From contig JAIORZ010000011.1 in assembly GCA_021107855.1 (NCBI GenBank), forward strand, positions 7,686 to 71,685: DNA of 64,000 nt. Direction: 5' to 3'. The notes under the pieces are model-generated. The model made no database searches. It was given only the letters and a program-made list of their open reading frames with translations, and was not told the DNA's origin. The position numbers were made by a program, and so were the translations under genes. The DNA comes from an archaeon. GTDB taxonomy: Archaea > Nanobdellota > Nanobdellia > Pacearchaeales > GW2011-AR1. Below, piece by piece: positions 23,950-41,350 of this stretch. Numbering within the stretch: the first letter of the stretch is position 1; every line of letters starts with the position of its first letter.

Positions 23950-23990
23950 GAACTGGAAAGATATATAAATATGGATTATTAGATTAGATT

Positions 23991-25787: not shown

Positions 25788-25788
25788 G

Positions 25789-26172
25789 TTAAGATATAGG
25801 CTTTACGCTTTTTATTTCTTTGTTAATTAGTTCTTCGACGTCTTTTTTCCGCATAAATTCTAAGGGTTGGAAATCTTTTAACATTCTTTCGATCAGCCCG
25901 ATTTCTTCTCGTTTGACGAATTTGTTGAATTCGGTTAAGAGGGAATTTGAGACTTTTTTTATTTTTTCGACGTCTTGTTTGATTGTTTGATTCTCCCGTT
26001 TTATTTCCCTTAAGTTTTCTTCTATGTCTTGGCGCGAGGATATTAAATTTTTGCCTAAAAGTAAGACACGTTCCCTGATAAGCTTGTTCCGTTCATCTAG
26101 GTCTCGGAGTCTTGTGTTGAAATCGGATAAGAGGAACTTAATTTGGTTGTCTTGGGGTTGAGGGTCGACCAT
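25789..26172 (-). CDS. coiled-coil protein (hypothetical)
   Basis: 127 aa with a heptad-rich charged sequence. Transcribed divergently from the secretion ATPase gene. Confidence 0.5.
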   Translation of the reverse strand: MVDPQPQDNQIKFLLSDFNTRLRDLDERNKLIRERVLLLGKNLISSRQDIEENLREIKRENQTIKQDVEKIKKVSNSLLTEFNKFVKREEIGLIERMLKDFQPLEFMRKKDVEELINKEIKSVKPIS

Positions 26173-26295
26173 GTTGGTGATTAGTCGGAGAAGTTTATAA
26201 TTGTTTAGGAAGGTTGGCGCGAGGATGAGAATATAAGGCTTCGGGATACATATCTTTTAATATTCTTTTTTGTTTGAATTTTTAGGTGAAGAAAA

Positions 26296-28575
26296 ATGAT
26301 GTTTAAGGATGACGCGCCGCTTTATTCTTATGAGGTTGTGCGTGAGAGTGGGGAGAATGTGATGTATATTAATTATCTTGGTGCGGCTGAGGTGCCGTCG
26401 CTTGTTGATTCGGGCGAGGTAATGGCTCGGGTGATTGATAATTTGAGGGAGGAGGCAAATGTTTCTAGAATTGTTTTTGTGCAGCAGAGGAATTATTCTC
26501 ATGATTTTGTGCAGGTTCGGATGTTGGTTGAAATTGCGAATTTGATTGATTTTTTGGTGAAACAGGAGAGAGTTGTTTCACCTGATAAGTTGTCGCATTT
26601 AGACGGGTTGTATCAGGAGGCTTATGCTTTTTTGAATCATGTGATTAATGAGGTTTTGTCGTCGGACCCTGTGAAAGCTTATCGTGAGTTGCGGGGGGAG
26701 CTGTTTCGGCAGCGGGCCAAGGTGGATGGTAAGGAAAAGAGGACGGAAGGTAGTGAGTATATTGGTATTTTGGAGAGGGTGATTGGTTTTTTTGGTGATT
26801 TGGAATTAATTAAGATAGCTAAGGGCAAGTTTGATTCTTATGTCTCTGGAAATCGGGAGATTTATAATGAGTTTTTTCGGGCGGACATTATGCCGAATTT
26901 TACGTTTACTCGTATGGTTGCAAAATTGCCGGCGGACGCGGAGATTGTGAAGCAGTATCAGATTGCGGAGGGGAGCGATGGTAGTATGGTGACGATTTTT
27001 AGAAGGCCGAATAAGGCGAAGTTTGTTTATCACTTGTCGCCGCCGGAGTATATGCTTTCTGAGGACCATCATATGTTGTTGAATTTGGCGCGGAATGTTT
27101 TGATTGAACATAGCCCGACGGCTGAGGAATTTAACGATCCCGAGAGGACGCGGCAAGTTTTTTTTAATGTAGCGAAGGATTTGCTTAGTGATTTGGCTGA
27201 GAGTAAGAATATCGCTTTGAGTTATGGGGATTTGAAGAAGTTGTCGAATATTTTGGTTAGGCATACGATTGGGTTTGGTGTTTTGGAGGTTTTGTTGAAG
27301 GACGAGGATTTGCAGGATATTATGGTTAATGCGCCTGTGAGTTTGTCGAATATTTTTGTTAGGCATAATGAGTTTGGCGAGTGTGTTTCGAATTTGGTGC
27401 CGTCGATGGAGGATGCGGATTCTTGGGCTGCGAAATTTAGGATGACCTCGGGTCGGGCGCTTGATGAGGCGAATCCTATTTTGGATACTAATTTGGAGCT
27501 TGAGGATGTTAGTGCGAGGGTTGCGATTATTCAGCAGCCGCTTTCTGCTGGTGGGCTTGCGTATACTTTGAGGAGGCATAGAAGTAAACCTTGGACTTTG
27601 CCGTTGTTTGTTAAGAATGGGATGATTGATTCTTTGGGCGCGGGGTTGCTTAGTTTTATGATTGATGGGGCTCGTACGATGTTGGTTGCGGGGACTCGGT
27701 CTAGTGGGAAGACGAGTTTGCTTGGGAGTTTGTTGTTGGAGATTATGCCGGATAAGAGGATTATTACGATTGAGGATACGTTGGAGTTGCCCGTCGCTGC
27801 GATGAGAAGGTTGGATTATGATATTTTGTCTATGAAGGTTCGGAGTGCTTTGGGTGGCGAGTCTGCGGAGGTTAGTGCGGAGGAGGGGATTCGGGCTTCT
27901 CTTCGTTTGGGTGATTCAAGTTTGATTGTTGGGGAAATTCGGTCGGGTGAGGCGAAGGCTTTGTATGAGGCGATGAGAGTTGGGGCTTTGGCGAATGTTG
28001 TTGCCGGGACGATTCATGGTGCGAGTCCTTATGGTGTTTTTGATAGAGTTGTTAATGATTTGGGGGTTCCGACTACGAGTTTTAAGGCTACGGATTTGAT
28101 TGTTGTTGCGAATCCGATTAAGTCGGCTGATGGACTGCATTCATGGAGACGGGTTTTGTCTATTAGTGAGATTAGGAAGCATTGGGAGAAAGACCCGTTG
28201 AGGGAGGGAGGTTTTGTTGATTTGATGAAATATGATGTGAAGGCGGATAAGGTTTTGCCGACGGATGACTTGATTAATGGGGATAGTGAGATTATGAAGG
28301 ATATTGCTTCTAATGTTAAGGGTTGGGTTGGGGATTGGGACGCTGTTTGGGATAATGTTGTTTTGAGGTCTAATATTAAAAAGGAGACTGTGAAAGTTGC
28401 AACTAAGGCGAATATGCCGGACCTTTTGGAGGGCGAGTTTACGGTGAAGTCGAATAATGCGTTTCATCAGATTTCGAATGAGGTTGTTAAGGATGTTGGA
28501 GTACCGGTTGGGGATGAGGTTTTTCCTAAGTGGAAGCGGTGGCTTGAGAAGGAAGTGAAGAAATTTGATTTGTAG
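26296..28575 (+). CDS. type II/IV secretion-system family ATPase (archaeal pilus/archaellum assembly ATPase-like) with a long N-terminal extension
   Basis: Walker A GTRSSGKTSLLGS, Walker B-like RIITIEDTLEL, and GEIRSGEAKALYEAMRVG (His/Asp-box region). Confidence 0.8.
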   Translation: MMFKDDAPLYSYEVVRESGENVMYINYLGAAEVPSLVDSGEVMARVIDNLREEANVSRIVFVQQRNYSHDFVQVRMLVEIANLIDFLVKQERVVSPDKLSHLDGLYQEAYAFLNHVINEVLSSDPVKAYRELRGELFRQRAKVDGKEKRTEGSEYIGILERVIGFFGDLELIKIAKGKFDSYVSGNREIYNEFFRADIMPNFTFTRMVAKLPADAEIVKQYQIAEGSDGSMVTIFRRPNKAKFVYHLSPPEYMLSEDHHMLLNLARNVLIEHSPTAEEFNDPERTRQVFFNVAKDLLSDLAESKNIALSYGDLKKLSNILVRHTIGFGVLEVLLKDEDLQDIMVNAPVSLSNIFVRHNEFGECVSNLVPSMEDADSWAAKFRMTSGRALDEANPILDTNLELEDVSARVAIIQQPLSAGGLAYTLRRHRSKPWTLPLFVKNGMIDSLGAGLLSFMIDGARTMLVAGTRSSGKTSLLGSLLLEIMPDKRIITIEDTLELPVAAMRRLDYDILSMKVRSALGGESAEVSAEEGIRASLRLGDSSLIVGEIRSGEAKALYEAMRVGALANVVAGTIHGASPYGVFDRVVNDLGVPTTSFKATDLIVVANPIKSADGLHSWRRVLSISEIRKHWEKDPLREGGFVDLMKYDVKADKVLPTDDLINGDSEIMKDIASNVKGWVGDWDAVWDNVVLRSNIKKETVKVATKANMPDLLEGEFTVKSNNAFHQISNEVVKDVGVPVGDEVFPKWKRWLEKEVKKFDL

Positions 28576-29568
28576 TTAGATATCTATGTCACGTAGTCCG
28601 TTGGTTTCAATCATGAATACTGTTTCGTTGTCTGGTAAATCTGGACTGTCAATTAGTTTGCAAACTCGGGAGTCTTTTTTCCCTCTTCTTAGATACATTC
28701 TGTAGGTGCAGGCGTGTCCGACGATGTTTCCTCCGATTGCTTTCGTTGGGTCTCCGAACATTTGTGCTGGGTCGCTCATGACTTGGTTAGTGACGTAAAC
28801 TGCTAGATTGTTTTGTTCGGCGACTTTCATTAGGTTGTGTAAATATCTGTTCAGCCTTTGTTGTCTATCGGCTAATTGGCCTCGCCCACTATATTCAGCT
28901 CTAAAATGTGCGGTCAAAGAATCGATAATCATTAGTCTAATGGGCTCGCCTTCTTTGATTAAATCTGCAATCCTATCAAGTAGCAGCATCTGGTGGTCTG
29001 AATTGAAAGCTCGTGCTACTAAAATATTTTTTAAAACTTTGTCTGGATTTGCATCAATTCCTTCTGCGAATTGCCTGATTCTCTCTGGTCTAAATGTTCC
29101 TTCTGTGTCGATGTAAACTGCTTTCCCGTTTGCGCCGCCTTGTTCAATTGGTAGTTGGACGCCGACAGCTAAAGACAAAGCCAACTGAGTCTTGCCGGAG
29201 CCGAAAGCCCCAAAAGCCTCAGTAATAGCCTTAGTCTGAATTCCTTTTCCTCCCAGAAGGTTATCTAAATTTTTTGAACCAGTAGTAATATGAAATAATT
29301 CTTTTCTTTTTTCCTCATGTTCTAGCCCGTCGACAAAGCCCATATCCATCATTTTACGCGATGCCTGAATAGCTTTCCTTGCGACCGACTCGCTCATGCC
29401 AGCCATTTCGCTTAGTTGAGCGGGCGTTAAAACAGCGAGTCCCATTAGTTCGTAAATTCCGGCGGCTTCTAATTTGGCAACGGCTCCGGGTCCGACACCA
29501 GGAAGGTCGATTAATTTTGGCTCTTTTTCTTCTTTCTCTTTAGGGGTTTTTTTATCCTTGTCAGCCAT
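28576..29568 (-). CDS. radA: DNA repair and recombination protein RadA
   Basis: N-terminal HhH LPGVGPGAVAKLEAAG, Walker A GAFGSGKTQ, Walker B LMIIDS. Start reset to ATG 29568 (MADKDKK); the track extension overlaps the next gene. Confidence 0.9.
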   Translation of the reverse strand: MADKDKKTPKEKEEKEPKLIDLPGVGPGAVAKLEAAGIYELMGLAVLTPAQLSEMAGMSESVARKAIQASRKMMDMGFVDGLEHEEKRKELFHITTGSKNLDNLLGGKGIQTKAITEAFGAFGSGKTQLALSLAVGVQLPIEQGGANGKAVYIDTEGTFRPERIRQFAEGIDANPDKVLKNILVARAFNSDHQMLLLDRIADLIKEGEPIRLMIIDSLTAHFRAEYSGRGQLADRQQRLNRYLHNLMKVAEQNNLAVYVTNQVMSDPAQMFGDPTKAIGGNIVGHACTYRMYLRRGKKDSRVCKLIDSPDLPDNETVFMIETNGLRDIDI

Positions 29569-29609
29569 ATTGTGAAATATCTCTCTTCCTTTATAAGAAT
29601 TTATATCAT

Positions 29610-30053
29610 CTAAAACAATTTTTGGAAAACCATCACAATAATTAGAAGGAGGAAGCCAACGAAAATAATATCTTCGGTCCATGACCCGCTCTTGACGAAG
29701 CCACGAATTCGAAAACCGAGTGGCCAGAATAATTTTACGCCAGCGCGGGTGAAGCAATCTAAAATTAAATGTGATAGGTATCCGATGAAGAAACCGAATC
29801 CTGCCCAGAGGTTTAGTAGTCCGAGGAGTAAGCTTAGAAGGACGCAGAATGTTAGACTGTGTAGACATCCGCGATGTTTTAAAATCCATGATAGTGGCCA
29901 GAATATTCTGCTGATTTTGCTATTTAGAGAATCAATGTCGACGAAGATTGCTCCTAATAAGATGAATCCTGGAATCCAAAATGGCATTTTAATGAAGAAA
30001 TCTAATGTGAGATAACTGACTAGGGCGAATGCGATATGAGAGCGAAATAACAT
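29610..30053 (-). CDS. YdjM/DUF457 family membrane-bound metal-dependent hydrolase
   Basis: MLFRSHIAFAL..., HRGCLHS and SHLILDCFT motifs. The track start at 30068 is TTG, so ATG 30053 is used. Confidence 0.6.
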   Translation of the reverse strand: MLFRSHIAFALVSYLTLDFFIKMPFWIPGFILLGAIFVDIDSLNSKISRIFWPLSWILKHRGCLHSLTFCVLLSLLLGLLNLWAGFGFFIGYLSHLILDCFTRAGVKLFWPLGFRIRGFVKSGSWTEDIIFVGFLLLIIVMVFQKLF

Positions 30054-30077
30054 GGATAGAAAAATCAAAACGAACTT

Positions 30078-31025
30078 TTAATCTTTCTTATCCAGTTTCT
30101 CAATCAACTTTTCAACATCTACCCTCTCAATCCCAGAAGCGACAATCTCTAAATTATTAAATAACTGATTGCGATTAACTCTTCCATTCAAATAAATCTC
30201 TGTTCCTAAAAAATCGTCTCTGAATGCCGTTGCTTTTGCTTCATCCTTTAAATCTTCTTCTGGCACAACCTGTCCAATTTGGTCGGAGAACATTACAACT
30301 CTCATAGTTTCTATTCCATCATCCAGAACAAAATTCAAAATTGCTCTGTCTTTTTTCTCGACAACTCCGTGTTCTGCGCACTTATATTTCTCATCTTCTC
30401 CGGCAACGACTTTTTTGTTGCAGGTTGGGCAGACGTGGTAAAATCTGGGTTGGAAAACTTGCACTACGGTGCCTCTAACTTTTATATTTTGTCCTTGCCT
30501 GACTTCATCTAGGTTAACTTCGCTGGCAACTGGTGCCTCTTTGACGTTATCCATCTTAACTGAACTTTTTTTAATTTCGCTAAATCCACTCAGGTGAATT
30601 TCACTGTCTCGCGTAGAGCCGTTCTTGATTTCAATCGTGTCACCGACTTTGATGGTTTCATCTTCGATTAGGGCAATATGATTGATGTCCCATAAAACGA
30701 CTCGCGTGGACCCGGTCTCGTCTGCCAAAATAAAATTAGCGACTTTCCCTTTTCTGTCGTTTTTTTCAAATTCTCTTACTGGAAAAATATTAACAACTTT
30801 GCCGACGATGTTTACTTTTCGCATTCCTGCCATTAATTCACTAACCTTTAATTCTTGGTCTTCAAAATTAATTCCTAATTCGGCTGCAATGATTTGTGCT
30901 GCACCTTCTTTTGAGATTAATCCTGATAGTTTCGCTTTTTTTGCTTCGACTTTTCGTTCGACTTCGACTTTCTCTAGTTTTGCTGATTTTGCGATTCTTT
31001 CGATTAAGAGTTCATAGTTGTTCAT
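30078..31025 (-). CDS. replication protein A (RPA; OB folds plus zinc ribbon)
   Basis: OB-fold blocks (VNIVGKVVNIFPVREF...ILADETGSTRVVLWD) and Zn ribbon CPTCNKKV...YKCAEHG. ATG 31025 is preferred over GTG 31046. Confidence 0.75.
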   Translation of the reverse strand: MNNYELLIERIAKSAKLEKVEVERKVEAKKAKLSGLISKEGAAQIIAAELGINFEDQELKVSELMAGMRKVNIVGKVVNIFPVREFEKNDRKGKVANFILADETGSTRVVLWDINHIALIEDETIKVGDTIEIKNGSTRDSEIHLSGFSEIKKSSVKMDNVKEAPVASEVNLDEVRQGQNIKVRGTVVQVFQPRFYHVCPTCNKKVVAGEDEKYKCAEHGVVEKKDRAILNFVLDDGIETMRVVMFSDQIGQVVPEEDLKDEAKATAFRDDFLGTEIYLNGRVNRNQLFNNLEIVASGIERVDVEKLIEKLDKKD

Positions 31026-31139
31026 ATCTGGGAAACTCACATTCACTATTTAAGTATTATTGAGATGGACTACATTGGTGATTGTAAATTGGTGGAATTA
31101 GGTAGGAATATTTATAAACCAAATTCGGGACAAGTAAAT

Positions 31140-31286
31140 ATGAAATGTATAAGTTGTAGCAAGGAGACGTCGAAGATTGTGAGGTTTCCGTGTCCGGGAT
31201 GTGGCGAGGAGATTTTGCGATGTGATAAGTGTAGGGGTCTTTCGATTGAATATAAATGTCCGAAATGTGGGTATAAAGGACCTTAG
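31140..31286 (+). CDS. small zinc-ribbon protein (the type usually encoded upstream of aEF-1beta)
   Basis: MKCISCSK...FPCPGCGEEILRCDKCRGLSIEYKCPKCGYKGP has four CxxC pairs. It sits directly upstream of aEF-1beta, a conserved archaeal gene pair. Confidence 0.65.
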   Translation: MKCISCSKETSKIVRFPCPGCGEEILRCDKCRGLSIEYKCPKCGYKGP

Positions 31287-31562
31287 ATGGGAACGGCGGG
31301 AATACAATTTAAGATAATGCCTGAGGGTGTGGATACGGATTTTGAGGAGCTTAAGGTGAAGGCGAAGGAAGCGGTTGAGTCTTTTGAGTCTGGGGTTTTT
31401 AATGGCGCGAAGGAAGAACCGATTGCGTTTGGGTTGAAGGCATTGATTATAACAATTGCACTTTCTGAGGATGAGGAATCTGATGCTGTTGAGTCTGCTT
31501 TGTCTAAGATTGCGGGAATTTCTTCTGTTGAGCTTATCGATTATAGAAGAGTTGTTGGATAA
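31287..31562 (+). CDS. translation elongation factor aEF-1 beta
   Basis: 91 aa; FKIMPEGVDTDFEELK...EPIAFGLKALIITI...VELIDYRR is typical of aEF-1beta. Confidence 0.8.
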   Translation: MGTAGIQFKIMPEGVDTDFEELKVKAKEAVESFESGVFNGAKEEPIAFGLKALIITIALSEDEESDAVESALSKIAGISSVELIDYRRVVG

Positions 31563-31600
31563 CTCGCTAAGTTTATAATATCTGTTTTCTTAAATTCTAA

Positions 31601-32194
31601 ATGTCAATAACAAGTGAAGAGGCTTCTAAAATAAAGGAACATCTTCTTGGGCAGCTTGAGAATTTCCCAGAAGATAAGCGTTCTCAGATAACTGAGCAGA
31701 TTAATTCTATGACGGATGAGCAGATTGAGGCTTTTATTGAACAGAATAAGTTGGGTCATTTGGGAGGAGGTTGTGTGTTTTGTTCGATAGTTAAGGAGGA
31801 AATTCCTTCATATAAAATTGCTGAGGATTCTTCGGGTATTGCGGTTCTTGAACTTAATCCGTTGAGTAAGGGTCATGCTTTGATTATTCCGAAAGAGCAT
31901 TTGGAGGAGGTTCCTGTGTCTTTGAAGTCTTTGACCCAGGAGGTTGCGAAAAAATTGGAGAGGAGGTTTTTGCCGGAGAAAGTGGAAATTAATGAGATAA
32001 AAATTATGAATCATGCTCTTGTGGAGGTTGTCCCGATTTATGGAGATGAAACCGAAAGGTCTAAGGCGTCGGAAAAAGAGTTGAAAAGTCTTCAAGAGGA
32101 AATTCTAAAGCCGGTAAAAATAAAAATCGAAGAGCCGCAAAGTCATGTTGATATGAAAGAAGAGATTCCGATACTTCCGCCGAGGATACCGTAG
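31601..32194 (+). CDS. HIT-like protein with a degenerate histidine triad and an N-terminal extension
   Basis: CVFCSIV...PLSKGHALIIPKEH matches the HIT fold, but the triad position reads NHALVEVVP instead of HxHxHxx. Confidence 0.55.
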   Translation: MSITSEEASKIKEHLLGQLENFPEDKRSQITEQINSMTDEQIEAFIEQNKLGHLGGGCVFCSIVKEEIPSYKIAEDSSGIAVLELNPLSKGHALIIPKEHLEEVPVSLKSLTQEVAKKLERRFLPEKVEINEIKIMNHALVEVVPIYGDETERSKASEKELKSLQEEILKPVKIKIEEPQSHVDMKEEIPILPPRIP

Positions 32195-32195
32195 T

Positions 32196-33014
32196 TTATC
32201 CTAATAAGATTCCGATGAACCAGTCTTTTAAAAATATATAACCTAAAAAAGCAATTAAAAATGCTGGCACGAAGGCTATCCCTTCTTTGATTAGGATGAT
32301 CTTTTTCTTTTTTAATAGTTTGATGTCATTTAGACTTAGTCCATCCCAGTTTGCTTTGATAATTTTTTTGCCTATTTTGATGTCTTTGACTAGCCAGTCT
32401 CCTTCTCGAAGATTTTCTCCTGAGATTTTTCGAATCATTGATACGTTTTCTAGTCCCTTGGCAAAAATGTAGAGTCCCATAAATATGATAGAGAAAATTC
32501 CGGCTAAGAGGAATAGGAAATTAACAAAACCTAATAAAATCAATCCTAAGCTGAGTGATAGATGCCAGATGGTGAATTTTTTTGCGACGCGACCCATTTC
32601 TTTGTTTACAGTTTTTCTGTTTTTAGAATATAAAAATCCGGAATAGAGTAAGCCATAAATGGAGCCGCTTAGCATTAAAAAGAATAAGAAGACTCCGATG
32701 TTGGTTGTTGATTCGTAAAAAGAAGCTCCGATGAAAAGGGCTGTCATCGCGATTAATAATTTTGCATCTCCTCCTGCGAAGACTCGTCCGTAGTAGAATA
32801 GGTTCATGATTCCGAACATTATGATTAAGATGAATCCAAGATGGAAAATGGTGTTGTAACTTTTATCTAGAATTGCTCCGTAGGAAATGAAGACGATTCC
32901 CCCTATCATCAAAAATAAATTCAGCCAGTTGTCAACTTCTCGTCTTTTTAAATCTTGTAAGGTTGCAATAATAATACCAATCAAAAAAAACCAAATTAAA
33001 AATTCAAAACTCAT
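32196..33014 (-). CDS. A24-family prepilin/preflagellin peptidase
   Basis: First catalytic Asp block ATLQDLKRREVDNWLN, second block FAGGDAKLLIAMTALF, multiple TM helices, and an extra C-terminal soluble segment. Confidence 0.8.
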   Translation of the reverse strand: MSFEFLIWFFLIGIIIATLQDLKRREVDNWLNLFLMIGGIVFISYGAILDKSYNTIFHLGFILIIMFGIMNLFYYGRVFAGGDAKLLIAMTALFIGASFYESTTNIGVFLFFLMLSGSIYGLLYSGFLYSKNRKTVNKEMGRVAKKFTIWHLSLSLGLILLGFVNFLFLLAGIFSIIFMGLYIFAKGLENVSMIRKISGENLREGDWLVKDIKIGKKIIKANWDGLSLNDIKLLKKKKIILIKEGIAFVPAFLIAFLGYIFLKDWFIGILLG

Positions 33015-33068
33015 CTCAAATTTTCCTTATAATAATTAGTCATATTATTCAACTAATCTAAAATTTAT

Positions 33069-33242
33069 TTAAACCTTCCTTTTTTTGTTCTTAACCAACT
33101 TCCCCATTTTGTCTTTCATCTCGCTACTTTCTTCGGTTACGTTATTAGACCTGAATTTTCCACCTCTTTTGTATCCTCGCGCCAGTCGTTTTCTTTTTAA
33201 GTCTTTTTTTGTTCTACGCCTTTCGCATCCTCCAAAATCCAT
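33069..33242 (-). CDS. small highly basic protein (hypothetical; below ORF-track cutoff)
   Basis: Manual translation gives MDFGGCERRRTKKDLKRKRLARGYKRGGKFRSNNVTEESSEMKDKMGKLVKNKKRKV. Confidence 0.3.
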   Translation of the reverse strand: MDFGGCERRRTKKDLKRKRLARGYKRGGKFRSNNVTEESSEMKDKMGKLVKNKKRKV

Positions 33243-33287
33243 GTAAGATTAAAGTTAAACAACTTAATAAATCTTTTTTATGTTCGA

Positions 33288-33848
33288 TTATTCATCATTT
33301 ACCAAGAAGGTTCCACTTTTTTTGGTTATTGAATATTCTTTGTCAAACTCGAAATAAAAGTCAACAGGGAAATTAACTTTCTCAATTTTTAGTGCTTTTA
33401 ATTCGAAAGTTTTTCCAATTTTTCCACGTCTGAATTTCATTTCGTTAGAACTGATTTCGCTTAGGCTTTCTTTATAGGCGATGTTTTCTAGAAAAGTATC
33501 TTCGTTGAAAGTTCCTTCTTCTAAGGCTTTTCCTTCCCAAAATAAATTTGAAAAAATGAAGTTTTTCATTTCATCGTTGATTCCGGAAATAAATTTGGTT
33601 CTAAATTCTTTCATGAATTCGGCAGTTCCAAAATTTGCTTCGACTTCGTCTAAGGTTTTTTTGATTAATTCTGTTTCCCTCATTTCGAAGATGGTTTTAT
33701 TGTCGCGGATTTCTAGGACGGTTAGTGGTGAGACCAAAGAACTTTGCACGTTCCCTTGTTGTTTTAGGTAAATTGTGATGGAAAGGCTGCACATCATTAT
33801 GGTTATGAGAAGTAAAATAAATGAAAAGAGTTGTGCTTTTTTATTCAT
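33288..33848 (-). CDS. pilin-like protein (class III signal peptide)
   Basis: N-terminus MNKKAQLFSFILLLITIMM. An alternative upstream ATG exists at 33866. Confidence 0.6.
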   Translation of the reverse strand: MNKKAQLFSFILLLITIMMCSLSITIYLKQQGNVQSSLVSPLTVLEIRDNKTIFEMRETELIKKTLDEVEANFGTAEFMKEFRTKFISGINDEMKNFIFSNLFWEGKALEEGTFNEDTFLENIAYKESLSEISSNEMKFRRGKIGKTFELKALKIEKVNFPVDFYFEFDKEYSITKKSGTFLVNDE

Positions 33849-34152
33849 CTTTTTGTTTCTCGGCATTTAATATTTCTTCCATTCTTTGTAGCGCTTCTTC
33901 TACGCTTTCTCCTTCTGCGACTAAAAATTTGGCATCATTTAGTAAGATGAATCTATCTGAGTAGTCAAAAATGTTATCTAGCTCGACTTTTTCTTCATCG
34001 TAAATTCCGACTTCTGCAGCGTGGTTTTTGTTGTCTAGTTTTTTGATGATTCCGCCGGCTACGATGTAGACGATTAAAATTAGAACGATTAAAATTGTCG
34101 CTCCGAAAAATATGATGAAGTTAGATAGAAGTCCTCGTTTATTCGTCTCCAT
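33841..34152 (-). CDS. pilin-like protein (class III signal peptide)
   Basis: N-terminus METNKRGLLSNFIIFFGATILIVLILIV. Overlaps both neighbouring genes. Confidence 0.6.
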   Translation of the reverse strand: METNKRGLLSNFIIFFGATILIVLILIVYIVAGGIIKKLDNKNHAAEVGIYDEEKVELDNIFDYSDRFILLNDAKFLVAEGESVEEALQRMEEILNAEKQKDE

Positions 34153-34672
34153 AGTTGACTAGAACCTCCATTTCCATTCTTCCGGCGTATTTTTTTCGGT
34201 CTTCTAATATTAGAACGGAATAATTTGCGATGTAATATCCTGGGTCGTATTTAACGAGATCGTTGGTGTTTTTTCCTAGTAGATTGTTTCCGACTGTGGT
34301 GGTTTTACCGAATAGGTCTTTAATCCAGAGTGCTCCCGAATCTCCTATGTTTCCTTTGGTGACTTTTTCGCCATCTTCATCGAAGACATTTACTTCGACA
34401 TAAAATCTTTCGCTGTCTGCGATTTTGCAATCTTTTAGTGTGTCGCTGATTTTTTCTTCTAGGTTTAAAATGCCTTTCGGTGCTAAACATTCGACGGTTT
34501 CTCGTGCCAAAATTCTGGCTTCTACATCTCGGACGTCAATATAATAAGCGTAGACAAACGAGCCGGCTCCGAATACTACGAATGCAACCAGCGTGACCAT
34601 GAATAACCGATACATCATATGAATTCCTTCTGCCATCTGTCCTCTTTTATTTACGCTTTTGGAAATTTTCAT
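34139..34672 (-). CDS. pilin-like protein (class III signal peptide)
   Basis: N-terminus ...VNKRGQMAEGIHMMYRLFMVTLVAFVVFG. TAATG overlap with the upstream gene. Confidence 0.55.
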   Translation of the reverse strand: MKISKSVNKRGQMAEGIHMMYRLFMVTLVAFVVFGAGSFVYAYYIDVRDVEARILARETVECLAPKGILNLEEKISDTLKDCKIADSERFYVEVNVFDEDGEKVTKGNIGDSGALWIKDLFGKTTTVGNNLLGKNTNDLVKYDPGYYIANYSVLILEDRKKYAGRMEMEVLVNYGDE

Positions 34673-35022
34673 TATTTGACTTTTACAATAAATTTACTTT
34701 CATTCTCATCGACTTCCACGGAATATCTGGAGAAGTAGGGATAGCCTTTGGTTGACCCGAATCCTTCTACTCCGACGAAAACTTTTCCGTCTCGGACTTC
34801 TACTTTATCGACTAGTCCGTTCATGTTTATTTTATTGATTTCAAAGCTCATGCCTGCTTCTGCGGAATCTATGAGTAGCGCGATTTGTTTTTCTATGACT
34901 TGTTGTTTAACGTCTCGTCCTCCGACTCGTCCTGCTGTGGCGAATAGGAAAACGGCGAGGACTAGAGCGATTAGGATTATGTGGATTATGACTTCGTTTA
35001 GGAGTGAGGCTTTTTTGTTCAT
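34672..35022 (-). CDS. pilin-like protein (class III signal peptide)
   Basis: N-terminus MNKKASLLNEVIIHIILIALVLAVFLF, with an ATGA overlap to the upstream gene at 35019-35022. Confidence 0.6.
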   Translation of the reverse strand: MNKKASLLNEVIIHIILIALVLAVFLFATAGRVGGRDVKQQVIEKQIALLIDSAEAGMSFEINKINMNGLVDKVEVRDGKVFVGVEGFGSTKGYPYFSRYSVEVDENESKFIVKVK

Positions 35023-36026
35023 GCTGGGATTCCTTCCCATGTTTCGCAGAATCCTATGTTAGCATTATCTACTGATTCTTTATAAGTCTCAAAATGCTTC
35101 CACTGTTCTCCCAATATAGAATTCTTAATGTATCCCCAATATTGAGTTAAAGATCCATAAGAAAGATCTAGAATAAAACTTTTTCTTACTTCTGTGAAGG
35201 GGTCGTCTTTTTGATTAGTTTGAAAATAGAAAAGATAAGGTACATATTTCCCAAAGGGGTCTTTGCCCATAGAGGCGATTCCGTAATTAATTAGTAGGTC
35301 TCCGTCTTTTGCACTGAAAGTTTCGGGTAGTGAAATATTAATGGTTTTCATATATGCTTCGAATTCTCCTCCGGTGAGCTTGTTTTTCAAGTCAACAAAT
35401 TCAATGCCATAGAATTTTTCTGTTTTTTTAATTTCAAATTTCTCCCCGTATAAATTGAAAGGTATCCCATTTCCGAAATCAAATGCTGCGAATTTTTTCC
35501 CTGAATCTCGTAAATAAACATAGTAACTATATTTTGGGGTCATTGGTAGGTCTAGTGCGTTTCGGATGTTGATGGTTTTATCTCCCAGTTTTTCTTTGGC
35601 TTCGGGTGTTAGGTGAATTCTGGCGCAGGGGACGCAGGTGCTTGATTTGAAGAATTTTGAAGGGAAGGCGCTGGCGTCTCCTTTGTCATAGAGTGCCCAA
35701 CATTCTGCCATTGTCTCAGCGATTTTTGTTTCTATCTCCATTCTCCCGTCTTTGTCTGGGGTGACATCATTTTTATCAATTTCAATAACACGTGTTTTGC
35801 ATTTTAGTGGGAATTCGTCTTTGAAAGAGGGTCCGTCAAATTTTGCAATCGTTAGTTCGGGCAAGGTTGACCTTACCTGGATACTCTGTCGGCAAATTTC
35901 CCATTCCATATCTTCGCTGGTGAAATATTCGTTAAAGATAAAATATAGACTTAAGCTTAAAATTAAGAGTCCTAAAATTAGTGATAGCATGATGTCCCAT
36001 TTGTAGTCACCTTTTTTATTCACCAT
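35019..36026 (-). CDS. 335-aa protein with pilin-like N-terminus (hypothetical)
   Basis: N-terminus MVNKKGDYKWDIMLSLILGLLILSLSLYF. No motif recognised in the extracellular part. Confidence 0.55.
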   Translation of the reverse strand: MVNKKGDYKWDIMLSLILGLLILSLSLYFIFNEYFTSEDMEWEICRQSIQVRSTLPELTIAKFDGPSFKDEFPLKCKTRVIEIDKNDVTPDKDGRMEIETKIAETMAECWALYDKGDASAFPSKFFKSSTCVPCARIHLTPEAKEKLGDKTINIRNALDLPMTPKYSYYVYLRDSGKKFAAFDFGNGIPFNLYGEKFEIKKTEKFYGIEFVDLKNKLTGGEFEAYMKTINISLPETFSAKDGDLLINYGIASMGKDPFGKYVPYLFYFQTNQKDDPFTEVRKSFILDLSYGSLTQYWGYIKNSILGEQWKHFETYKESVDNANIGFCETWEGIPA

Positions 36027-36056
36027 AGGACAAAATATAAAACAAAGTTAATAAAT

Positions 36057-36185
36057 CTACCCAATAATTTTGGCGACAATTTTCCAGACTGCGAAACTCG
36101 ATGCGATTAGGAGCCCTAGATATCCGATTAATTTGATTGTGTTGTCTGTAAGGGCTTCTCCGCTTTTATCGGATGCTAAATTCAT
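36057..36185 (-). CDS. 42-aa single-TM protein (hypothetical; below ORF-track cutoff)
   Basis: Manual translation gives MNLASDKSGEALTDNTIKLIGYLGLLIASSFAVWKIVAKIIG. Overlaps the end of the upstream gene by 20 nt. Confidence 0.3.
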   Translation of the reverse strand: MNLASDKSGEALTDNTIKLIGYLGLLIASSFAVWKIVAKIIG

Positions 36186-36666
36186 AGACTCCTCCTTCCT
36201 TTTCTAATTTGAGTCTTACTCCTTCCCTAATAGTCCAATTTTCTGAATGTGTTTTTCCGGCGTTGGTGTCAAAAAAAGTCGCGGGTAAATCTAAATTGGT
36301 GCAGTGGTTGCAGACTGCATTATTTCCATCGTATGCGCAGAGGCAGATTATGCTGTTGCCCGATTTCTTTTTGGAGACAAAGGAGATTTTTTTCCAGTTA
36401 AAACTTATTGCTTTTCCAAAATAAACCATATAAGAATCGAGGTCTTCGATTCCATCATCTATCATAAAAAAGCCGGCTTCCCTTCCTTCATCAGCTTCTC
36501 CTATGGCTTCCTCGAGTTGCTTAAGGTAGGATTCTCCTTTTTCGTCTCCTTTGTCAAAGGCAGGGGCGAATATAGCGACCATTAGCCAAATCATTAGTGC
36601 GAGGACTGTGACGGCTAGGATGACTTTTACGCTTTCTTCGCTGAATAAATTTCCTTTTTTGTTCAT
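36166..36666 (-). CDS. pilin-like protein (class III signal peptide)
   Basis: N-terminus MNKKGNLFSEESVKVILAVTVLALMIWL, with an ATGA overlap to the upstream gene at 36663-36666. Confidence 0.6.
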   Translation of the reverse strand: MNKKGNLFSEESVKVILAVTVLALMIWLMVAIFAPAFDKGDEKGESYLKQLEEAIGEADEGREAGFFMIDDGIEDLDSYMVYFGKAISFNWKKISFVSKKKSGNSIICLCAYDGNNAVCNHCTNLDLPATFFDTNAGKTHSENWTIREGVRLKLEKEGGVYEFSIR

Positions 36667-38501
36667 CTGCATTTCTCCTGTAGAAGCTCTTTAACAATAC
36701 TCGCCACAAAAACTTCTCTAAAGTGATTTTCGTATAATTGGTAAGCATTTTTGTCCCCAACTCCAACCCATTCCTCATCAATCCATTTCGCGAGGGAAAC
36801 TGGGAAATATCTTATTTTGACTTTTCTAAAAGAGCCATCAATCCAGAATTCTAAATTGCTAAATGCTCTTCCTGTTCCGCTGTACTTTAATCCGTATTTT
36901 TCACCGTTGGATTCTAAAACTAAAACGGGTTTGTCGTTGGGTTTTTCTACATTAACGTTAAATGTTTTGCCGTCAATTTCAACTTCTTGAGGGACGCTGT
37001 TTAGTCTGTCAAAAATTTCTTCTGGCAGGGTGGCTTCTTCTAGTAGTTTTGTTTGTATCTCGATGATTGCTTTTTTTAGTCTGAGAATATTTTTATCGTT
37101 ATCGAGACCCTTTTTGGTTCCGTCTTCTTTCATTTTTTCATCTCTTAAAAAGTTAAGTACTAAGTTGAATCTCTTTTCGTATCTTTCATCTTCCTCGTGC
37201 ATCCCACCAGCGCCAAATCTCCATTCCCTCCAAACTTCATCTACGTTTCCTTTTCGCCTTAGGTTGATTTCTTCAATCATTTTAATCGCCATTTGTTTAT
37301 ACATGGCTTTATCGGCGTCGCTTGTTAGCTCTCCTGCTCCTCCGTAATCGTAGAGTGGGTCGTATTCTGTTCCAGTACTGATTTTGAGGTTCGCATAGGT
37401 TAGGGGATTTTTTGTGACAACACTAGGGTCAACGGTTCCAGCATCTTTCCTGTCTCCATGTGCTAGGAATCTCCATCCTTGTTCGATGTATCTTCCTAAA
37501 AATTTTTCTTCCTCTGGTGTCCAGTCGACTACTTCGTTCTTTAGGTGGGATTGGACTAATCCTTTTGTGATTTGGACGGGACCGTAGGCGGTAGATGTTG
37601 AGCCATGTACTTTGGTTCTAATCCATGGAGTGTAGCTCCAGGTGAATCTATCGGTTCTGTAATTATAGTTTGTTCCGTGTTCGGAGGCCATTAGTGCTTT
37701 GTAAATTTTGTCCGAAGAAAAGTAGAAATCTGCTCCTATCCTTTTATCTGAGAGAAGCATGTTGCCAATTTCGCTTCCTAAGAAGGAGCCCTTAAGGTAG
37801 GTTTCGTCTGGGCTTTCTGGCTCTTCTATTTTCCAAAAGACTTCGTCGTCCCACATATCATTTACTCCTTCTAGGAACTTGGCGATTGCTTCATCATTAT
37901 CGGTAAAAATTTCTCCTTCCTCTCCATCAACGCTAACAACCCACTGTCCGTTTGCCCAGGTTGCAGTGGTGGGCTTGTCCCATGGTCCTGAGCCGTCTCC
38001 GCTTAAGACGAATCGCCTAGTCTGCCCTTCGTCATATAGTTTTCTGGTTTCAGCATCTTCTAATAAAGTAACACCTTTGTGATAAATTTCCCAGTGTAAT
38101 TCGCTTGAATCAATGTCTCCGTCAATTAGGGCGCGGCATTCTTTCCAGCCGGTTATATCTATTTTTTCAAGGATTCCTCTGTTTAGTCTGTAACCTACTC
38201 CGGTCCAGGACAAATTGCAAAATCCGGGACAGATACCTAATGTGGCATCTGGGATTCTTAGTTTATTTAGAAATTCCTCTCCTCCTCCGATATCTGAAAT
38301 TTTAAATTCGTTGCAATTTTCTAAATCGAAGTCTTCGCCAAAAGAGCTTATGAAATAGATTGTGTCTTCCCATTGCTCTTTTAATTTTTCAATCAATGGG
38401 TTTAATCCTCCCGTAATTGCTCCGAAGAGAATAATTAAAACGACGATTGCTAAAACGAAAACAATCACTTTTCTAAGAGATAATTCTCCGTTTTTTATCA
38501 T
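36663..38501 (-). CDS. 612-aa protein with pilin-like N-terminus and a large extracellular domain (possible lysozyme/SLT-like region)
   Basis: N-terminus MIKNGELSLRKVIVFVLAIVVLIILFG. Internal ALMASEHG...STSTAYGPVQITKG...WREWRFGAGG resembles ES...GLMQ...AYNxG of lytic transglycosylases, but only weakly. Confidence 0.6.
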   Translation of the reverse strand: MIKNGELSLRKVIVFVLAIVVLIILFGAITGGLNPLIEKLKEQWEDTIYFISSFGEDFDLENCNEFKISDIGGGEEFLNKLRIPDATLGICPGFCNLSWTGVGYRLNRGILEKIDITGWKECRALIDGDIDSSELHWEIYHKGVTLLEDAETRKLYDEGQTRRFVLSGDGSGPWDKPTTATWANGQWVVSVDGEEGEIFTDNDEAIAKFLEGVNDMWDDEVFWKIEEPESPDETYLKGSFLGSEIGNMLLSDKRIGADFYFSSDKIYKALMASEHGTNYNYRTDRFTWSYTPWIRTKVHGSTSTAYGPVQITKGLVQSHLKNEVVDWTPEEEKFLGRYIEQGWRFLAHGDRKDAGTVDPSVVTKNPLTYANLKISTGTEYDPLYDYGGAGELTSDADKAMYKQMAIKMIEEINLRRKGNVDEVWREWRFGAGGMHEEDERYEKRFNLVLNFLRDEKMKEDGTKKGLDNDKNILRLKKAIIEIQTKLLEEATLPEEIFDRLNSVPQEVEIDGKTFNVNVEKPNDKPVLVLESNGEKYGLKYSGTGRAFSNLEFWIDGSFRKVKIRYFPVSLAKWIDEEWVGVGDKNAYQLYENHFREVFVASIVKELLQEKCR

Positions 38502-38635
38502 CTTCCAAATCTCATTAAATTTTTAATCGACCCGAGTAAATCACCACCACCACCGAAGAAATAAATTGTTGCTCCAATCATGACAACTAAAACAGCTACA
38601 AAAATTATAATTTTAATGAGTTCCTCTATTTCCAT
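38498..38635 (-). CDS. 45-aa single-TM protein (hypothetical; below ORF-track cutoff)
   Basis: Manual translation gives MEIEELIKIIIFVAVLVVMIGATIYFFGGGGDLLGSIKNLMRFGR. Its stop overlaps the next start as ATGA. Confidence 0.4.
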   Translation of the reverse strand: MEIEELIKIIIFVAVLVVMIGATIYFFGGGGDLLGSIKNLMRFGR

Positions 38636-38675
38636 GTTAATAAAGTGTTGGACTAATTAATAAAGATTGCTAAAA

Positions 38676-39056
38676 TTAGCAAAGACTCGGGCAGCTATCG
38701 ACATTTACGCCAGGGTATTTGGTCGAATCAGTCATGTCTTTGCAGGTTCCGGGGGAAGATTCGACATCCTCTGAAATGGCTGTTCCATCCCATGCCTTAA
38801 CTCCTTTCCCATATTTTACAGTTCTTTCCTCTTGACAAAATCCGTATGTATCTCCCGTTGAACATCTTAATGCACAAGCTTGTACAATCGTGTTGACGTT
38901 ATTGTCTGTGCCCCCAAAAGACGTTACTTTGCTCCATAAATTATTCCATCCCGTGGAAAACCCGAAAATTAAGAATACTAAAACTGCGATACCTAAGACG
39001 ATTGTGATAATTGTTCCTAGCGCCATTTCTTGGCCGCGCTTGTCCATCCTCTTCAT
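38676..39056 (-). CDS. archaeal type IV pilin-like protein (probable major subunit candidate)
   Basis: N-terminus MKRMDKRGQEMALGTIITIVLGIAVLVFLIFGF (basic residues, G-Q, hydrophobic helix). Small Cys-containing globular part. First pilin gene after the platform gene. Confidence 0.7.
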   Translation of the reverse strand: MKRMDKRGQEMALGTIITIVLGIAVLVFLIFGFSTGWNNLWSKVTSFGGTDNNVNTIVQACALRCSTGDTYGFCQEERTVKYGKGVKAWDGTAISEDVESSPGTCKDMTDSTKYPGVNVDSCPSLC

Positions 39057-39106
39057 ATAGGTCTAACAATTCTCTTATTTATAAAACTTCTCATCTTGAA
39101 TTTTGT

Positions 39107-41281
39107 TTAGGTTAGTCCGGCTAGGGCGACGGAGCCGATTACTGTTAATCCGATGATGGAACCTGCGGCGATAATCGTGTATAAAATCATTGTTACTTTT
39201 AGGTTTTTCCCGGTTTCTGCTGTGGTTTGCAATAAATCCCTTCCGCTTTTAATTGTTACGAGAGTGGATGTTAGGATGAAAACGACTTGGATTAAGTAGA
39301 CTCCTATGACAATTTGTAGCCAATAGGTTGGAATCATTTTTGTAATGTCGAAGATGGATAAGATTCCTGAGATTCCTCCGGCTCCTAATTCTGCGCCCAT
39401 TCCTCCTCCCTCGAACATTGCGCTCAGGCTTCCTAGAATTGTCGTAATCATTCCGGATAGCCCGACGATAATTCCGGATAGTAAGGGTGCCAGAAAGGTC
39501 ATGTTTGATTTCATGTCTGAGATAATGTTGGCTAGTAAATCGTTTAGTCTCGCGTCAATTTTTTTGATATTTTTAACGTAATCGCTGATTGCCATCAGGC
39601 TTCGGGCTGCGACCTTTAGTCCCTTTTTGGCTGATTCTATTAAAATTTTCATGGAGGTTGCGACTAATTGGCTTGGGTAAAAGGTGACGGCACCTCTTTT
39701 GGGGTCGAAGAGTGCTCTTTCTAAATTCATGCCGAGTCTTCCGATGTTTTCGTTGACGATTCTGAAGAAGCCCTCGGTTGCGGTTCCTTTCACGGAGCCA
39801 GCGACTTTTGAGAAGGCGATTTCTGCTGGGGAGCCGTCGCCGATACGGTTTCCTAACTGGAATAATGAGGATGTGAATTCTTTTTCAATGTCTTTGTATT
39901 TGTTTCTCATTTCTATGATTTCGTGGGTTTTTTCTTTAGCGGCTACGATGAAAATGATGGCGATTCCAGCTGGGATTGCGAGGCTCAAGAGTAGTGCGCC
40001 TGACCCGAACGGTCCGGATAGAGCTCCGGCAGAATCTTCTAGAATTCCGAATATTCCTCCGTTGCCTAAGAAGCCTAATCCTATTTGTGACCAGGCATAA
40101 TCTCGGGATGTGTCTAGCCAAATTGGGACGGGGGTGTATCGCCAGAGGAAGGGAATTAGTCCGATGAGGAAGAGTGGTGAGGCTAGGAAAAATCCTTTCC
40201 AGTATCCGGCGTTGCTGGCGTATTTTGGGTAGAGTGGATTTTTTTCTAGCAGGTCACTTTCCCCGTAGCCACCGGGGCGTCTCATCATGACATTTCCTGT
40301 CATATAGACAACCATCATCGGGATAATGATATTAAAAATCAAAAGTACGTGGTACCATCTAATTGCTCCGCCAAGCATTGTGGAGGCGAGGGGTAGGATT
40401 GCTAGGGCTAGTGTTGGTAGGACGATGCCGAGCATGTAAACATTGGTTAGCGGTGCTTTTGCCTCGTGTGTGTATTTCAACATCTTGTCGTAAACTCCGT
40501 CTAAAATAACTTGTAAACTTTTTTCTAAAACTTGTATCCTCCGTGATTCGCTTGGCTCGAATAAACTCGACTCGATTAAATGGAACGCTTCGATAAATTC
40601 CATACTGTAATCTCGCCATCTTTCTAGATAGTGGTCGACGCTTTCTTTAATGGTTGAAAATCGTCCGACCTCAACATCCCAGAAAATTTTTCTAAAGTCT
40701 AGGCTTAATGGTTCGGATAAATGTTCTGCCGCAAAACTCATGGCTTTTTCGAAGTTGCTTGTGTGTTTCATGTAAATTACGATATACAAAATTGCCGGAA
40801 CCATTTGACTTGAGGCTTTTAACCGCCATTTAATCGCCAATCGTTCCGGGGTTTTGGATGCGTAAAAGAATGTGAAGATTCCTAAAATGAAAATTAGGAA
40901 TAGGAACATTAGGGAGAATGCTCCGGTTAATAGCCAGATGGCCGTGAAAAGTAGGCTTCCTCCGAATAAAATTCCGAACATTAATGCTGTTGCGAGGACT
41001 ACAACTTCGCCTGGTGTTACGTTTAAGTGTGCGATGTCGATTGCCCGTTGGATTCGGGCATTGTCTTTTTCTCCCACCTTCATTTTTATGAAATTTCCAA
41101 AGGTTTTACACCATTTTTCATATCGGGAGAATTCTGGTATCATTGACCCTTTAAATTTTGCATAACTTTTTGAGAATTTTTGTGTTTCGCTGGAAGTGCT
41201 ATGACTACCCATCTGTTTTTTAATCCGTGCTCCATATTTTTTTAAAATATCGTCTGTGCTAGGCGCCTCTTTTTTTGCCAT
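39107..41281 (-). CDS. polytopic membrane protein, probable pilus/secretion platform protein (FlaJ/TadC/PilC-like)
   Basis: About 725 aa with a cytoplasmic helical N-domain followed by multiple TM blocks in two halves. The call rests on position at the head of the pilin cluster. ATG 41281 (MAKKEAP) chosen. Confidence 0.45.
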   Translation of the reverse strand: MAKKEAPSTDDILKKYGARIKKQMGSHSTSSETQKFSKSYAKFKGSMIPEFSRYEKWCKTFGNFIKMKVGEKDNARIQRAIDIAHLNVTPGEVVVLATALMFGILFGGSLLFTAIWLLTGAFSLMFLFLIFILGIFTFFYASKTPERLAIKWRLKASSQMVPAILYIVIYMKHTSNFEKAMSFAAEHLSEPLSLDFRKIFWDVEVGRFSTIKESVDHYLERWRDYSMEFIEAFHLIESSLFEPSESRRIQVLEKSLQVILDGVYDKMLKYTHEAKAPLTNVYMLGIVLPTLALAILPLASTMLGGAIRWYHVLLIFNIIIPMMVVYMTGNVMMRRPGGYGESDLLEKNPLYPKYASNAGYWKGFFLASPLFLIGLIPFLWRYTPVPIWLDTSRDYAWSQIGLGFLGNGGIFGILEDSAGALSGPFGSGALLLSLAIPAGIAIIFIVAAKEKTHEIIEMRNKYKDIEKEFTSSLFQLGNRIGDGSPAEIAFSKVAGSVKGTATEGFFRIVNENIGRLGMNLERALFDPKRGAVTFYPSQLVATSMKILIESAKKGLKVAARSLMAISDYVKNIKKIDARLNDLLANIISDMKSNMTFLAPLLSGIIVGLSGMITTILGSLSAMFEGGGMGAELGAGGISGILSIFDITKMIPTYWLQIVIGVYLIQVVFILTSTLVTIKSGRDLLQTTAETGKNLKVTMILYTIIAAGSIIGLTVIGSVALAGLT

Positions 41282-41350
41282 AGGTACTATTATAGTTATT
41301 GTTGAATAGCTATTTAAATTCATCCAAATTTTAAGAAAGTTTTATTAAGT

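Follow-up and report, generated by a model that had tools for sequence, protein, structure and literature searches.

Within the 64,000-nucleotide stretch of Pacearchaeota DNA analysed here (hereafter the window), a run of 13 minus-strand open reading frames (ORFs) at positions 32196-41281 probably encodes the subunits, the platform protein and the leader peptidase of a type IV filament (T4F) machine. We put the probability of this reading, in which the machine is core to the class and the atypical strand skew of the locus derives from an inversion, at roughly 75%. The run had already been described, in an original prediction made from the sequence alone, as a type IV pilus-like locus; all 13 of the ORFs listed there were recovered at the same positions, and their junctions are mostly overlaps or gaps of at most 54 nucleotides.

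We found that the locus is strictly ordered among relatives. In four related contigs (L010, L012, L013 and L014) the genes correspond one to one, beginning with the predicted platform gene, continuing with those for the 126-, 45-, 612-, 168-, 42-, 335-, 122-, 177-, 103-, 192- and 57-residue proteins, and ending with the peptidase (the L013 contig ends before the peptidase position). Identity to these four relatives is 76-84% for the associated assembly ATPase, 71-77% for the platform, 56-62% for the peptidase and 27-66% for the pilin-like proteins; almost all orthologues of the latter retain the [KR][GA] site, the exceptions being the L013 copies of the 612- and 42-residue genes.

The predicted platform protein, of 725 residues, has over 2665 homologues, and the top 120 are 69-96% identical to it. 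Homologues with a named source belong to Pacearchaeota or Nanoarchaeota, a few of them bearing the Joint Genome Institute label 'TadB'. In a phylum-wide sample the protein was found in 398 of 401 genomes or, counted by genus, in 278 of 280. The T4F machine is therefore a core feature of the class (Pacearchaeota- and Woesearchaeota-type Nanoarchaeota, tiny symbiotic archaea of the DPANN group), ordinary for the lineage and not a peculiarity of one genome. In six class-level genomes, whose platforms are 41-45% identical to the one studied here, the ATPase gene is directly followed by the platform gene in every case, and in three of the six loci (L016, L017 and L020) the platform is followed by 9-11 genes with class III leaders, in blocks that include genes of 35-75 and of 270-550 residues. 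The original prediction had considered the pilin-like proteins unusually many; the set is indeed large, but the four relatives and the class-level loci show that this size is normal for the lineage.

Genes of the filament machine

Class III signal peptides had been assigned to eight proteins of the locus. In seven of the eight the canonical [KR][GA] is followed by a hydrophobic helix, whereas the 612-residue protein reads K-N-G; hydropathy gives every pilin-like protein one helix, at the N-terminus. A crude class III filter, which requires [KR][GA] within the first 30 residues and a strongly hydrophobic 17-mer after it, passes 67 (2.8%) of the 2431 ORFs of at least 60 residues in the 936-kb genome. 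It passes six of the eight named locus proteins, which are consecutive, and the 177- and 612-residue proteins fit slightly looser settings. The clustering of pilin signals at the locus is far beyond chance.

The peptidase is the only protein of the locus (32196-41281) with a curated family match. It matches PF01478 at 1.3e-8 (35.7 bits, against a cut-off of 26.5) and NCBIfam FlaK at 8.8e-8, below the equivalog cut-off, and its alignment to FlaK (3S0X) retains both catalytic Asp residues, in QDLKRRE and GGDAK; the aligned pair gives QD(L/F)(K/R)xRE and GGD(A/G)K. The Pfam Peptidase_A24 match and this alignment bear out the earlier identification of an A24 peptidase with both Asp motifs. For the pilin-like proteins and the platform, searches of Pfam, NCBIfam, PHROGs and PDB sequences returned nothing above noise.

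The three smallest ORFs, previously counted as micro-ORFs, are of two kinds: the 42- and 45-residue proteins are mini-pilins, and the 57-residue protein is not pilin-like. Orthologues of the 42-residue protein read SKRG/ELVSGETIKWILV and NKAG/AVFANETVRWIG, and the family in the relatives reads SKRG/ELVSGETIKW. The 45-residue protein, which shares 58-61% identity with its counterparts in the four relatives, opens with the mature-type sequence MEIEELIK, and no in-frame start codon was found upstream of its gene. A 50-residue gene in L017 matches it (phmmer, 5.8e-8) and has a KRG/E leader, and a 52-residue gene of L020 in the equivalent position has a KKG/E leader. The 57-residue protein is very basic and has no family match; in the four related loci its gene always follows the last pilin gene and precedes that for the peptidase, and the protein is conserved at 65-71% identity.

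Two of the larger subunits have features of their own. The 126-residue pilin has orthologues in L010, L012, L013 and L014 and is the only globular-headed pilin detectable by sequence in the class-level loci. A TATA-like TTTATAAATA lies approximately 25-35 nucleotides upstream of its ATG (39057-39106), and a T-rich sequence follows its stop codon (38636-38675); together these would fit a separate, strong transcription of this subunit. A scan for bacterial-type promoters and terminators gave counts equal to the shuffle expectation, and such a scan is uninformative for an archaeon. The family of the 335-residue protein has six invariant cysteines, including those of a CVPCARIH motif, which suggests disulfides or a metal site in an otherwise unrecognisable extracellular domain; a PDB sequence search with this protein gave no match.

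The sizes of these subunits bear on one alternative, namely that the locus is bindosome-like, with leaders, ATPase and platform serving only to anchor or arrange large surface proteins (those of 612 and 335 residues) and no extended filament being formed. The large pilin-like proteins do carry non-pilin domains, and the ATPase matches NCBIfam BasE, though weakly (1.3e-18, far below the cut-off). However, no protein of the locus matches substrate-binding-protein families in Pfam or NCBIfam, and the operon is dominated by small helix-dominated subunits (42, 45, 103, 122 and 126 residues), as a filament predicts. We consider a bindosome-like arrangement quite improbable.

The 725-residue protein had been proposed as the platform. 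Although it has no Pfam or NCBIfam match, the results of a fold search, of profile comparisons and of gene neighbourhood jointly indicate that it may be regarded as a fused, strongly diverged double platform of the GspF/TadC type. By hydropathy it has about 9-10 hydrophobic segments (in its 725- or 738-residue form). The only specific Foldseek matches of its predicted structure are SpoIIIAB (6bs9; probability 1.0, TM-score 0.71) and the cytoplasmic domain of EpsF (2vma/2vmb; probability 0.75, TM-score approximately 0.65). EpsF is the platform protein of type II secretion, and SpoIIIAB presumably has the same helical bundle.

Profile comparison gives results for both predicted repeats. When the protein family was compared by hhalign with the four canonical TadB/C proteins of the genome, residues 128-309 aligned in register with T2SSF 87-265 over repeat 1, with a probability of 15% (E = 0.0018) in a first comparison and of 42% (E = 2.6e-4) with a more diverse alignment. 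In repeat 2, residues 456-501 align in register with the beginning of the T2SSF domain (E = 0.014). A hidden Markov model of the family, run against all ORFs of the genome, found a canonical TadB as its best non-self match (E = 0.015). Internal duplication was not detected, the two halves showing no detectable similarity to each other (hhalign, E = 0.67).

The set at 32196-41281 had been called complete, but the ATPase lies outside it at 26296-28575, together with neighbouring genes for coiled-coil proteins and for proteins with four transmembrane segments (4-TM). The best PDB matches of the ATPase core are 2oap (GspE2 of A. fulgidus), CpaF and FlaI; its N-terminal extension of about 290 residues has no match, and its NCBIfam FlaI and TadA scores are below the cut-offs. 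The gene lies upstream of the platform gene on the same strand in L010, L012, L013, L014, G375 and G324, and directly adjacent to it in L015-L020. Judging by these matches and by this neighbourhood, the 759-residue ATPase is the predicted motor of the filament system. In L014 (GCA_018830525.1, 3127-9024) the ATPase orthologue is a 1965-residue ORF with two inteins (Intein_splicing and LAGLIDADG).

The coiled-coil genes are kept beside the ATPase in order-level and class-level loci, and the 4-TM genes, whose three paralogous products share the motif PFLLVFxVVFAILxK[ST]K[IV]LG[DE], adjoin the coiled-coil genes and the ATPase in L012-L014 and L016-L020. Both stay by the ATPase even where the platform is only about 42% identical. 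Neither the 4-TM nor the coiled-coil proteins have a family match; they are probably further parts of the machine.

An archaellum (motility) locus, the identity that the original prediction had set against its own, can now be assessed. The ATPase has a sub-threshold NCBIfam FlaI match (131 bits, against a cut-off of 550) and the peptidase resembles FlaK. Against this, no protein of the locus matches the archaellin, FlaF/G, FlaH, FlaC/D/E or FlaX families in Pfam or NCBIfam, and the platform is not recognisable as FlaJ. The archaellum reading is effectively excluded.

A short pseudopilus, of the type II secretion or competence-like kind, deserves more weight. Such a structure would act in protein export or in the uptake of DNA or other macromolecules, and the 'minor pilins' would be the whole of it. 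Many pilin-like genes in one-to-one orthology are reminiscent of GspG-K or ComGC-GG, the ATPase is closest to the CpaF, TadA and GspE2 types, and the system is near-universal in a class that must scavenge nucleotides (PMC8204110). However, ComEC (Pfam Competence) was not found in the genome, which is 85% complete, and the DNA-uptake idea was rejected on this ground; a secretin or other channel was neither expected nor found. A modular pilin with an enzyme domain also fits surface display better, and the archaeal T4F systems investigated to date produce true filaments (PMC4371748). We therefore regard a pseudopilus as unlikely, and retain the T4F machine as the preferred reading.

Table 1. Positions of the genes and other features of the window that are referred to in the text.
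Feature	Position	Strand	Remarks
Three paralogous 4-TM proteins, ~160 residues each	23470-24979	+	Candidate accessory parts
Two coiled-coil protein genes (253 and 127 residues)	24980-26172	-	Divergent from ATPase; candidate accessory parts
Assembly ATPase, FlaI/TadA/GspE2-type, 759 residues	26296-28575	+	Pfam T2SSE 2.3e-17, above cut-off
Inverted block, RadA to platform gene	28576-41323		From gene order in same-genus genome G375
A24 (FlaK/PibD-type) prepilin peptidase, 272 residues	32196-33014	-	Pfam PF01478
Basic soluble protein, 57 residues	33069-33242	-	Begins MDFGGCERRRTKKDLKRKR; conserved position; not pilin-like
Pilin-like protein, 192 residues	33288-33866	-	..MNKKA / QLFSFILLLITIMM
Pilin-like protein, 103 residues	33841-34152	-	METNKRG / LLSNFIIFFGATIL
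Pilin-like protein, 177 residues	34139-34672	-	..VNKRG / QMAEGIHMMYRLFMVTLVAF
Pilin-like protein, 122 residues	34672-35040	-	MNKKA / SLLNEVIIHIILIAL
Pilin-like protein, 335 residues	35019-36026	-	MVNKKG / DYKWDIMLSLILGLL; six invariant Cys
Mini-pilin, 42 residues	36057-36185	-	MNLASDKSG / EALTDNTIKLIGYLGLL; class III-like leader
Pilin-like protein, 168 residues	36166-36672	-	MQMNKKG / NLFSEESVKVILAV
Modular pilin-like protein, 612 residues	36663-38501	-	Leader MIKNG, then transmembrane helix
Lysozyme / lytic-transglycosylase-like central domain, phage-type	37152-37718	-	Residues ~260-455 of the 612-residue protein
Helix-only mini-pilin, 45 residues, leaderless	38498-38635	-	Begins MEIEELIKIIIFVAVLVV; orthologues in four relatives
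Pilin, 126 residues, Cys-rich head	38676-39056	-	Leader MKRMDKRG / QEMALGTIITIV; class III pattern
Platform-like polytopic protein, 725 residues	39107-41281	-	Upstream ATG at 41323 gives 738 residues

The genome also holds further canonical T4F gene sets (C2:195413-198144; C1:273513-276328; C1:223951-228278), which comprise two T2SSE ATPases and two separate TadB/TadC pairs that match Pfam T2SSF, both with their own pilin clusters. A 3688-residue ORF at C1:118512-129578, with the N-terminal hydrophobic signal MKERGYFLLFVGFLL, surfaced in the class III scan.

Inversion of the block and its strand skew

The genome has an extreme strand bias, with a GC skew of +0.30 for contig C1, -0.21 for C2 and +0.23 for C3, and the strand asymmetry of related Pacearchaeota loci is likewise extreme. 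In the window, plus-strand genes reach a GC skew of +0.5 to +0.6, and the skew is positive even over minus-strand genes. Expressed as plus-strand values, it is -0.22 to +0.13 for the minus-strand genes of the block at 28576-41323, against +0.15 to +0.31 for the other minus-strand genes of the window. In L010 and L012, the coding strand of the block's genes is the G-rich strand, with a skew of +0.40 to +0.66.

We compared the gene order of the window with that of the same-genus genome G375. The order in G375, read in one direction and with opposite-strand genes marked, is ATPase, platform, pilins, peptidase, HIT(-), EF-1beta(-), Zn-ribbon(-), RPA, YdjM, RadA, UDG, Nop10(-) and aIF2alpha(-). In the window it is ATPase, then RadA(-), YdjM(-), RPA(-), Zn-ribbon(+), EF-1beta(+), HIT(+) and peptidase(-) through to platform(-), then UDG. 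The two orders differ by exactly one inversion, with endpoints at the ATPase/platform and RadA/UDG junctions; the comparison therefore identifies a single inversion of the whole block. A block that had partly re-equilibrated after being inverted would have the intermediate skew seen here. Elsewhere in the genus and family, the ATPase-platform pair has been rearranged in other ways.

The missing mirror skew had been taken as a hint of a different history. The skew anomaly is real and the block is rearranged, but comparison with G375 shows that the history is one of inversion and not of foreign origin. A horizontally acquired island would explain why the GC skew of the block is unlike that of other minus-strand genes; however, the anomaly also covers the housekeeping genes for RadA, RPA, EF-1beta and HIT, the genes of the system are core to the class, the G+C content is not deviant, and the order in G375 is uninverted. 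Horizontal transfer of the block was rejected in favour of the inversion on the skew of the housekeeping genes and the G375 order, and is effectively excluded. An inversion whose skew is partly adjusted is a natural marker of how fast the extreme strand bias of these genomes is imposed.

The central domain of the 612-residue protein

None of the extracellular domains had been recognisable to the original prediction. One of them can now be recognised: a module search, motifs, an AlphaFold2 (AF2) model and comparison with the viral structures of BFVD all point to a phage-type, lytic transglycosylase- or lysozyme-like domain at residues ~260-455 of the 612-residue protein. We consider it rather likely that this is a divergent lysozyme- or lytic-transglycosylase-type domain of phage origin.

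An exhaustive homologue search of 1.84 billion representative sequences resolved the protein into an N module (residues ~1-250), an inserted centre (~260-455) and a C module (~470-612). The N and C modules are common to orthologues of 400-470 residues, which lack the centre. The centre is present in about 10 orthologue clusters of 590-646 residues, and also in about 100 further representative clusters of unrelated proteins, which range from 130-350 residues up to two to three thousand. Orthologues of the 612-residue protein occur in L010, L012 and L014, and a 528-residue gene in the same position in L013 matches marginally (E = 0.006).

The family of the central domain has the motifs AE[TH]G, PWIRT, GSSAYGPxQ[IL]T, YDYGGxG and WREWRFG. 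Glu274 (codon 37680-37682) is invariant in 26 of 26 sequences and stands at the end of helix 4-16 of the AF2 model, which has a predicted local distance difference test score (pLDDT) of 93. The best BFVD match of this model, with E = 1.2e-8, is a protein from Vibrio phage VpV262 that is uncharacterised. Phage proteins dominate the matches below it, and nearly all of the named ones are SLT, LT_GEWL, endolysin or tail-lysin proteins (probability at most 0.95, TM-score 0.35-0.58). In an hhalign comparison with E. coli EmtA, MltC, MltD and Slt, GSSAYGPxQ[IL]T falls on S..A.GLMQ with E = 0.021, against 0.53 for a reversed control. PHROGs and PDB sequence searches with the central domain were negative.

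The domain resembles family 1 lytic transglycosylases and goose-type lysozyme (GEWL) in several respects. An invariant Glu ends the first helix, the G-S-S-A-Y-G-P-x-Q-[IL] motif resembles S-x-x-G-A-x-G-L-M-Q, the fold is mostly helical, and the domain is found at the ends of very large phage proteins. Unlike family 1 lytic transglycosylases, it has an additional beta-hairpin (PWIRT), placed after the Glu and before motif II. Two phage settings were noted. On a tailed-phage contig (L021), which carries genes for tail proteins, an exonuclease, NrdD and a DnaB-type helicase, the domain forms the N-terminus of a 2761-residue protein (L021:10001-18286) whose gene comes after the tail genes. On a phage-like contig (L022) it is a 172-residue gene (L022:8001-8519) beside one for a 2172-residue GGDEF-containing protein.

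Among 301 genomes sampled across the phylum, the domain was found in one, the genome studied here, and this genome has no canonical SLT domain. The distribution of the central domain points to a graft that is recent and confined to the lineage, on a pilin-like scaffold that is itself conserved. Large extracellular proteins with murein lytic transglycosylase domains have been reported from Pacearchaeota and Woesearchaeota, where they were read as a sign of bacterial partners (Castelle et al. 2021; PMC8204110). These proteins and the 612-residue protein come from the same lineage and would have the same target, bacterial peptidoglycan. They differ in that the reported proteins are up to ~3000 residues long with a recognisable SLT/GH23 domain, whereas here the only candidate muralytic domain in a genome without Pfam SLT lies inside the pilin-like gene of an operon.

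Comparison with known systems and proposed function

The core of the machine has been seen before. Hamm et al. 2024 (PMC11291902) describe two conserved type IV pilus-like loci in cluster 2 DPANN archaea, including Pacearchaeota, Woesearchaeota and Nanoarchaeota, with a CpaF ATPase, a TadC platform and coiled-coil proteins, some of whose proteins were detected by proteomics in Nanohaloarchaeum. To judge by that description, the same core is present here (24980-28575 and 39107-41281) and in ten related loci. Their account, as far as it concerns filament proteins, names FlaF and PilA for one of the two loci. The block of about ten pilins, the mini-pilins, the terminal peptidase, the 4-TM triplet and the muralytic-like modular pilin go beyond the description given there. 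Relative to it, what is new is the set of about ten pilin genes and the lytic-transglycosylase-like pilin domain, the core machine being already known.

Archaeal T4F systems with many pilins are also known, namely clade 1 or system 1, the Epd pili of Methanococcus (Makarova et al. 2016, PMC4858521; PMC13705601). The locus shares with them many minor pilins, very short helix-only pilins, a dedicated peptidase and, in some subunits, Gln at position +1 (RGQ and KAQ here). System 1 has two separate platform genes, a large EppA-type peptidase and +1 Gln substrates throughout, whereas the present locus has a single 725-residue protein as its predicted fused platform, an ATPase of ~760 residues and a FlaK-like peptidase of 272 residues, with +1 Gln in only three of its approximately ten subunits. 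A MacSyFinder survey found that DPANN archaea rarely show ordered T4F loci (PLoS Genet 2026, PMC13705601). The strict order of this locus qualifies that statement, and the reported rarity may be explained by family models that are blind to its platform and pilins.

Modular type IV pilins are known from bacteria, for example PilB and PilC of Streptococcus sanguinis, here taken as outlined in PMC8179133. The 612-residue protein likewise combines a pilin module with a grafted functional module, although its display on a filament is only predicted. It differs from PilB and PilC, so far as that outline goes, in that the graft is an enzyme-like domain and its carrier, in which it separates the N module from the C module, is a pilin-like protein of an archaeon.

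Our interpretation needs to be weighed cautiously, as several observations weigh against it. The 725-residue protein fails Pfam T2SSF, for which only one of 23 homologues gave a match, at E = 4.8; its AF2 model is of moderate quality (pLDDT 61) and unreliable for the second repeat. The leader of the 612-residue protein is K-N-G and not [KR]G, and in several mature N-termini the helix is preceded by 5-9 polar residues, an unusual feature for pilins. A retraction ATPase was not identified. For the central domain, all PDB Foldseek matches have E > 0.3 and probability at most 0.2 (MltD, Slt, destabilase and Man134A are among the top ones), the hhalign match to the E. coli SLT domains is limited to the motif II region, and Pfam SLT (PF01464) has no match in the 612-residue protein, in ten relatives or in the whole genome. 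A domain seen in one sampled genome also cannot explain a function that is class-wide.

If the locus does encode a T4F machine, prepilins would insert into the membrane through the N-terminal helix, and the peptidase of the operon would cut them after the conserved [KR]-[G/A]. The hexameric ATPase would then drive the diverged double-GspF platform, by which subunits would be lifted from the membrane into a helical filament. The shaft would consist of one abundant subunit, either the 126-residue pilin or the 45-residue mini-pilin, and the remaining, individually orthologous pilin-like proteins would serve as a priming or tip complex. The 612-residue modular pilin would, in this lineage alone, display a phage-derived lysozyme- or lytic-transglycosylase-like domain.

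To our knowledge, these archaea are not expected to make peptidoglycan, and because of this the target of a muralytic-like module would lie outside the cell. The filament would then probably contact bacterial cells and open their peptidoglycan locally; we infer from the sequences a contact filament aimed at bacteria. The attachment or host-interaction role suggested by the original prediction is likewise putative. It has been suggested that the smallest Pacearchaeota and Woesearchaeota associate with bacteria (PMC8204110; PMC11537232). That the filament is a device to attack or feed on bacteria, with the 612-residue pilin at its tip cutting the peptidoglycan of the partner, is a more specific proposal, which we put forward as tentative and, on present indications, rather doubtful.

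No member of the Pacearchaeota or Woesearchaeota has been cultivated; an ordered T4F machine is near-universal in the class. The approximately ten orthologous subunits are targets for proteomics or cryo-electron tomography, and the phage-type muralytic-like subunit makes the bacterial association of some such archaea testable at the bench. If the proposal is true, this Pacearchaeota lineage would live on bacteria and not on archaea, and the class-wide machine of ATPase, platform, coiled-coil and 4-TM proteins would be a general apparatus of host contact with exchangeable tip modules.

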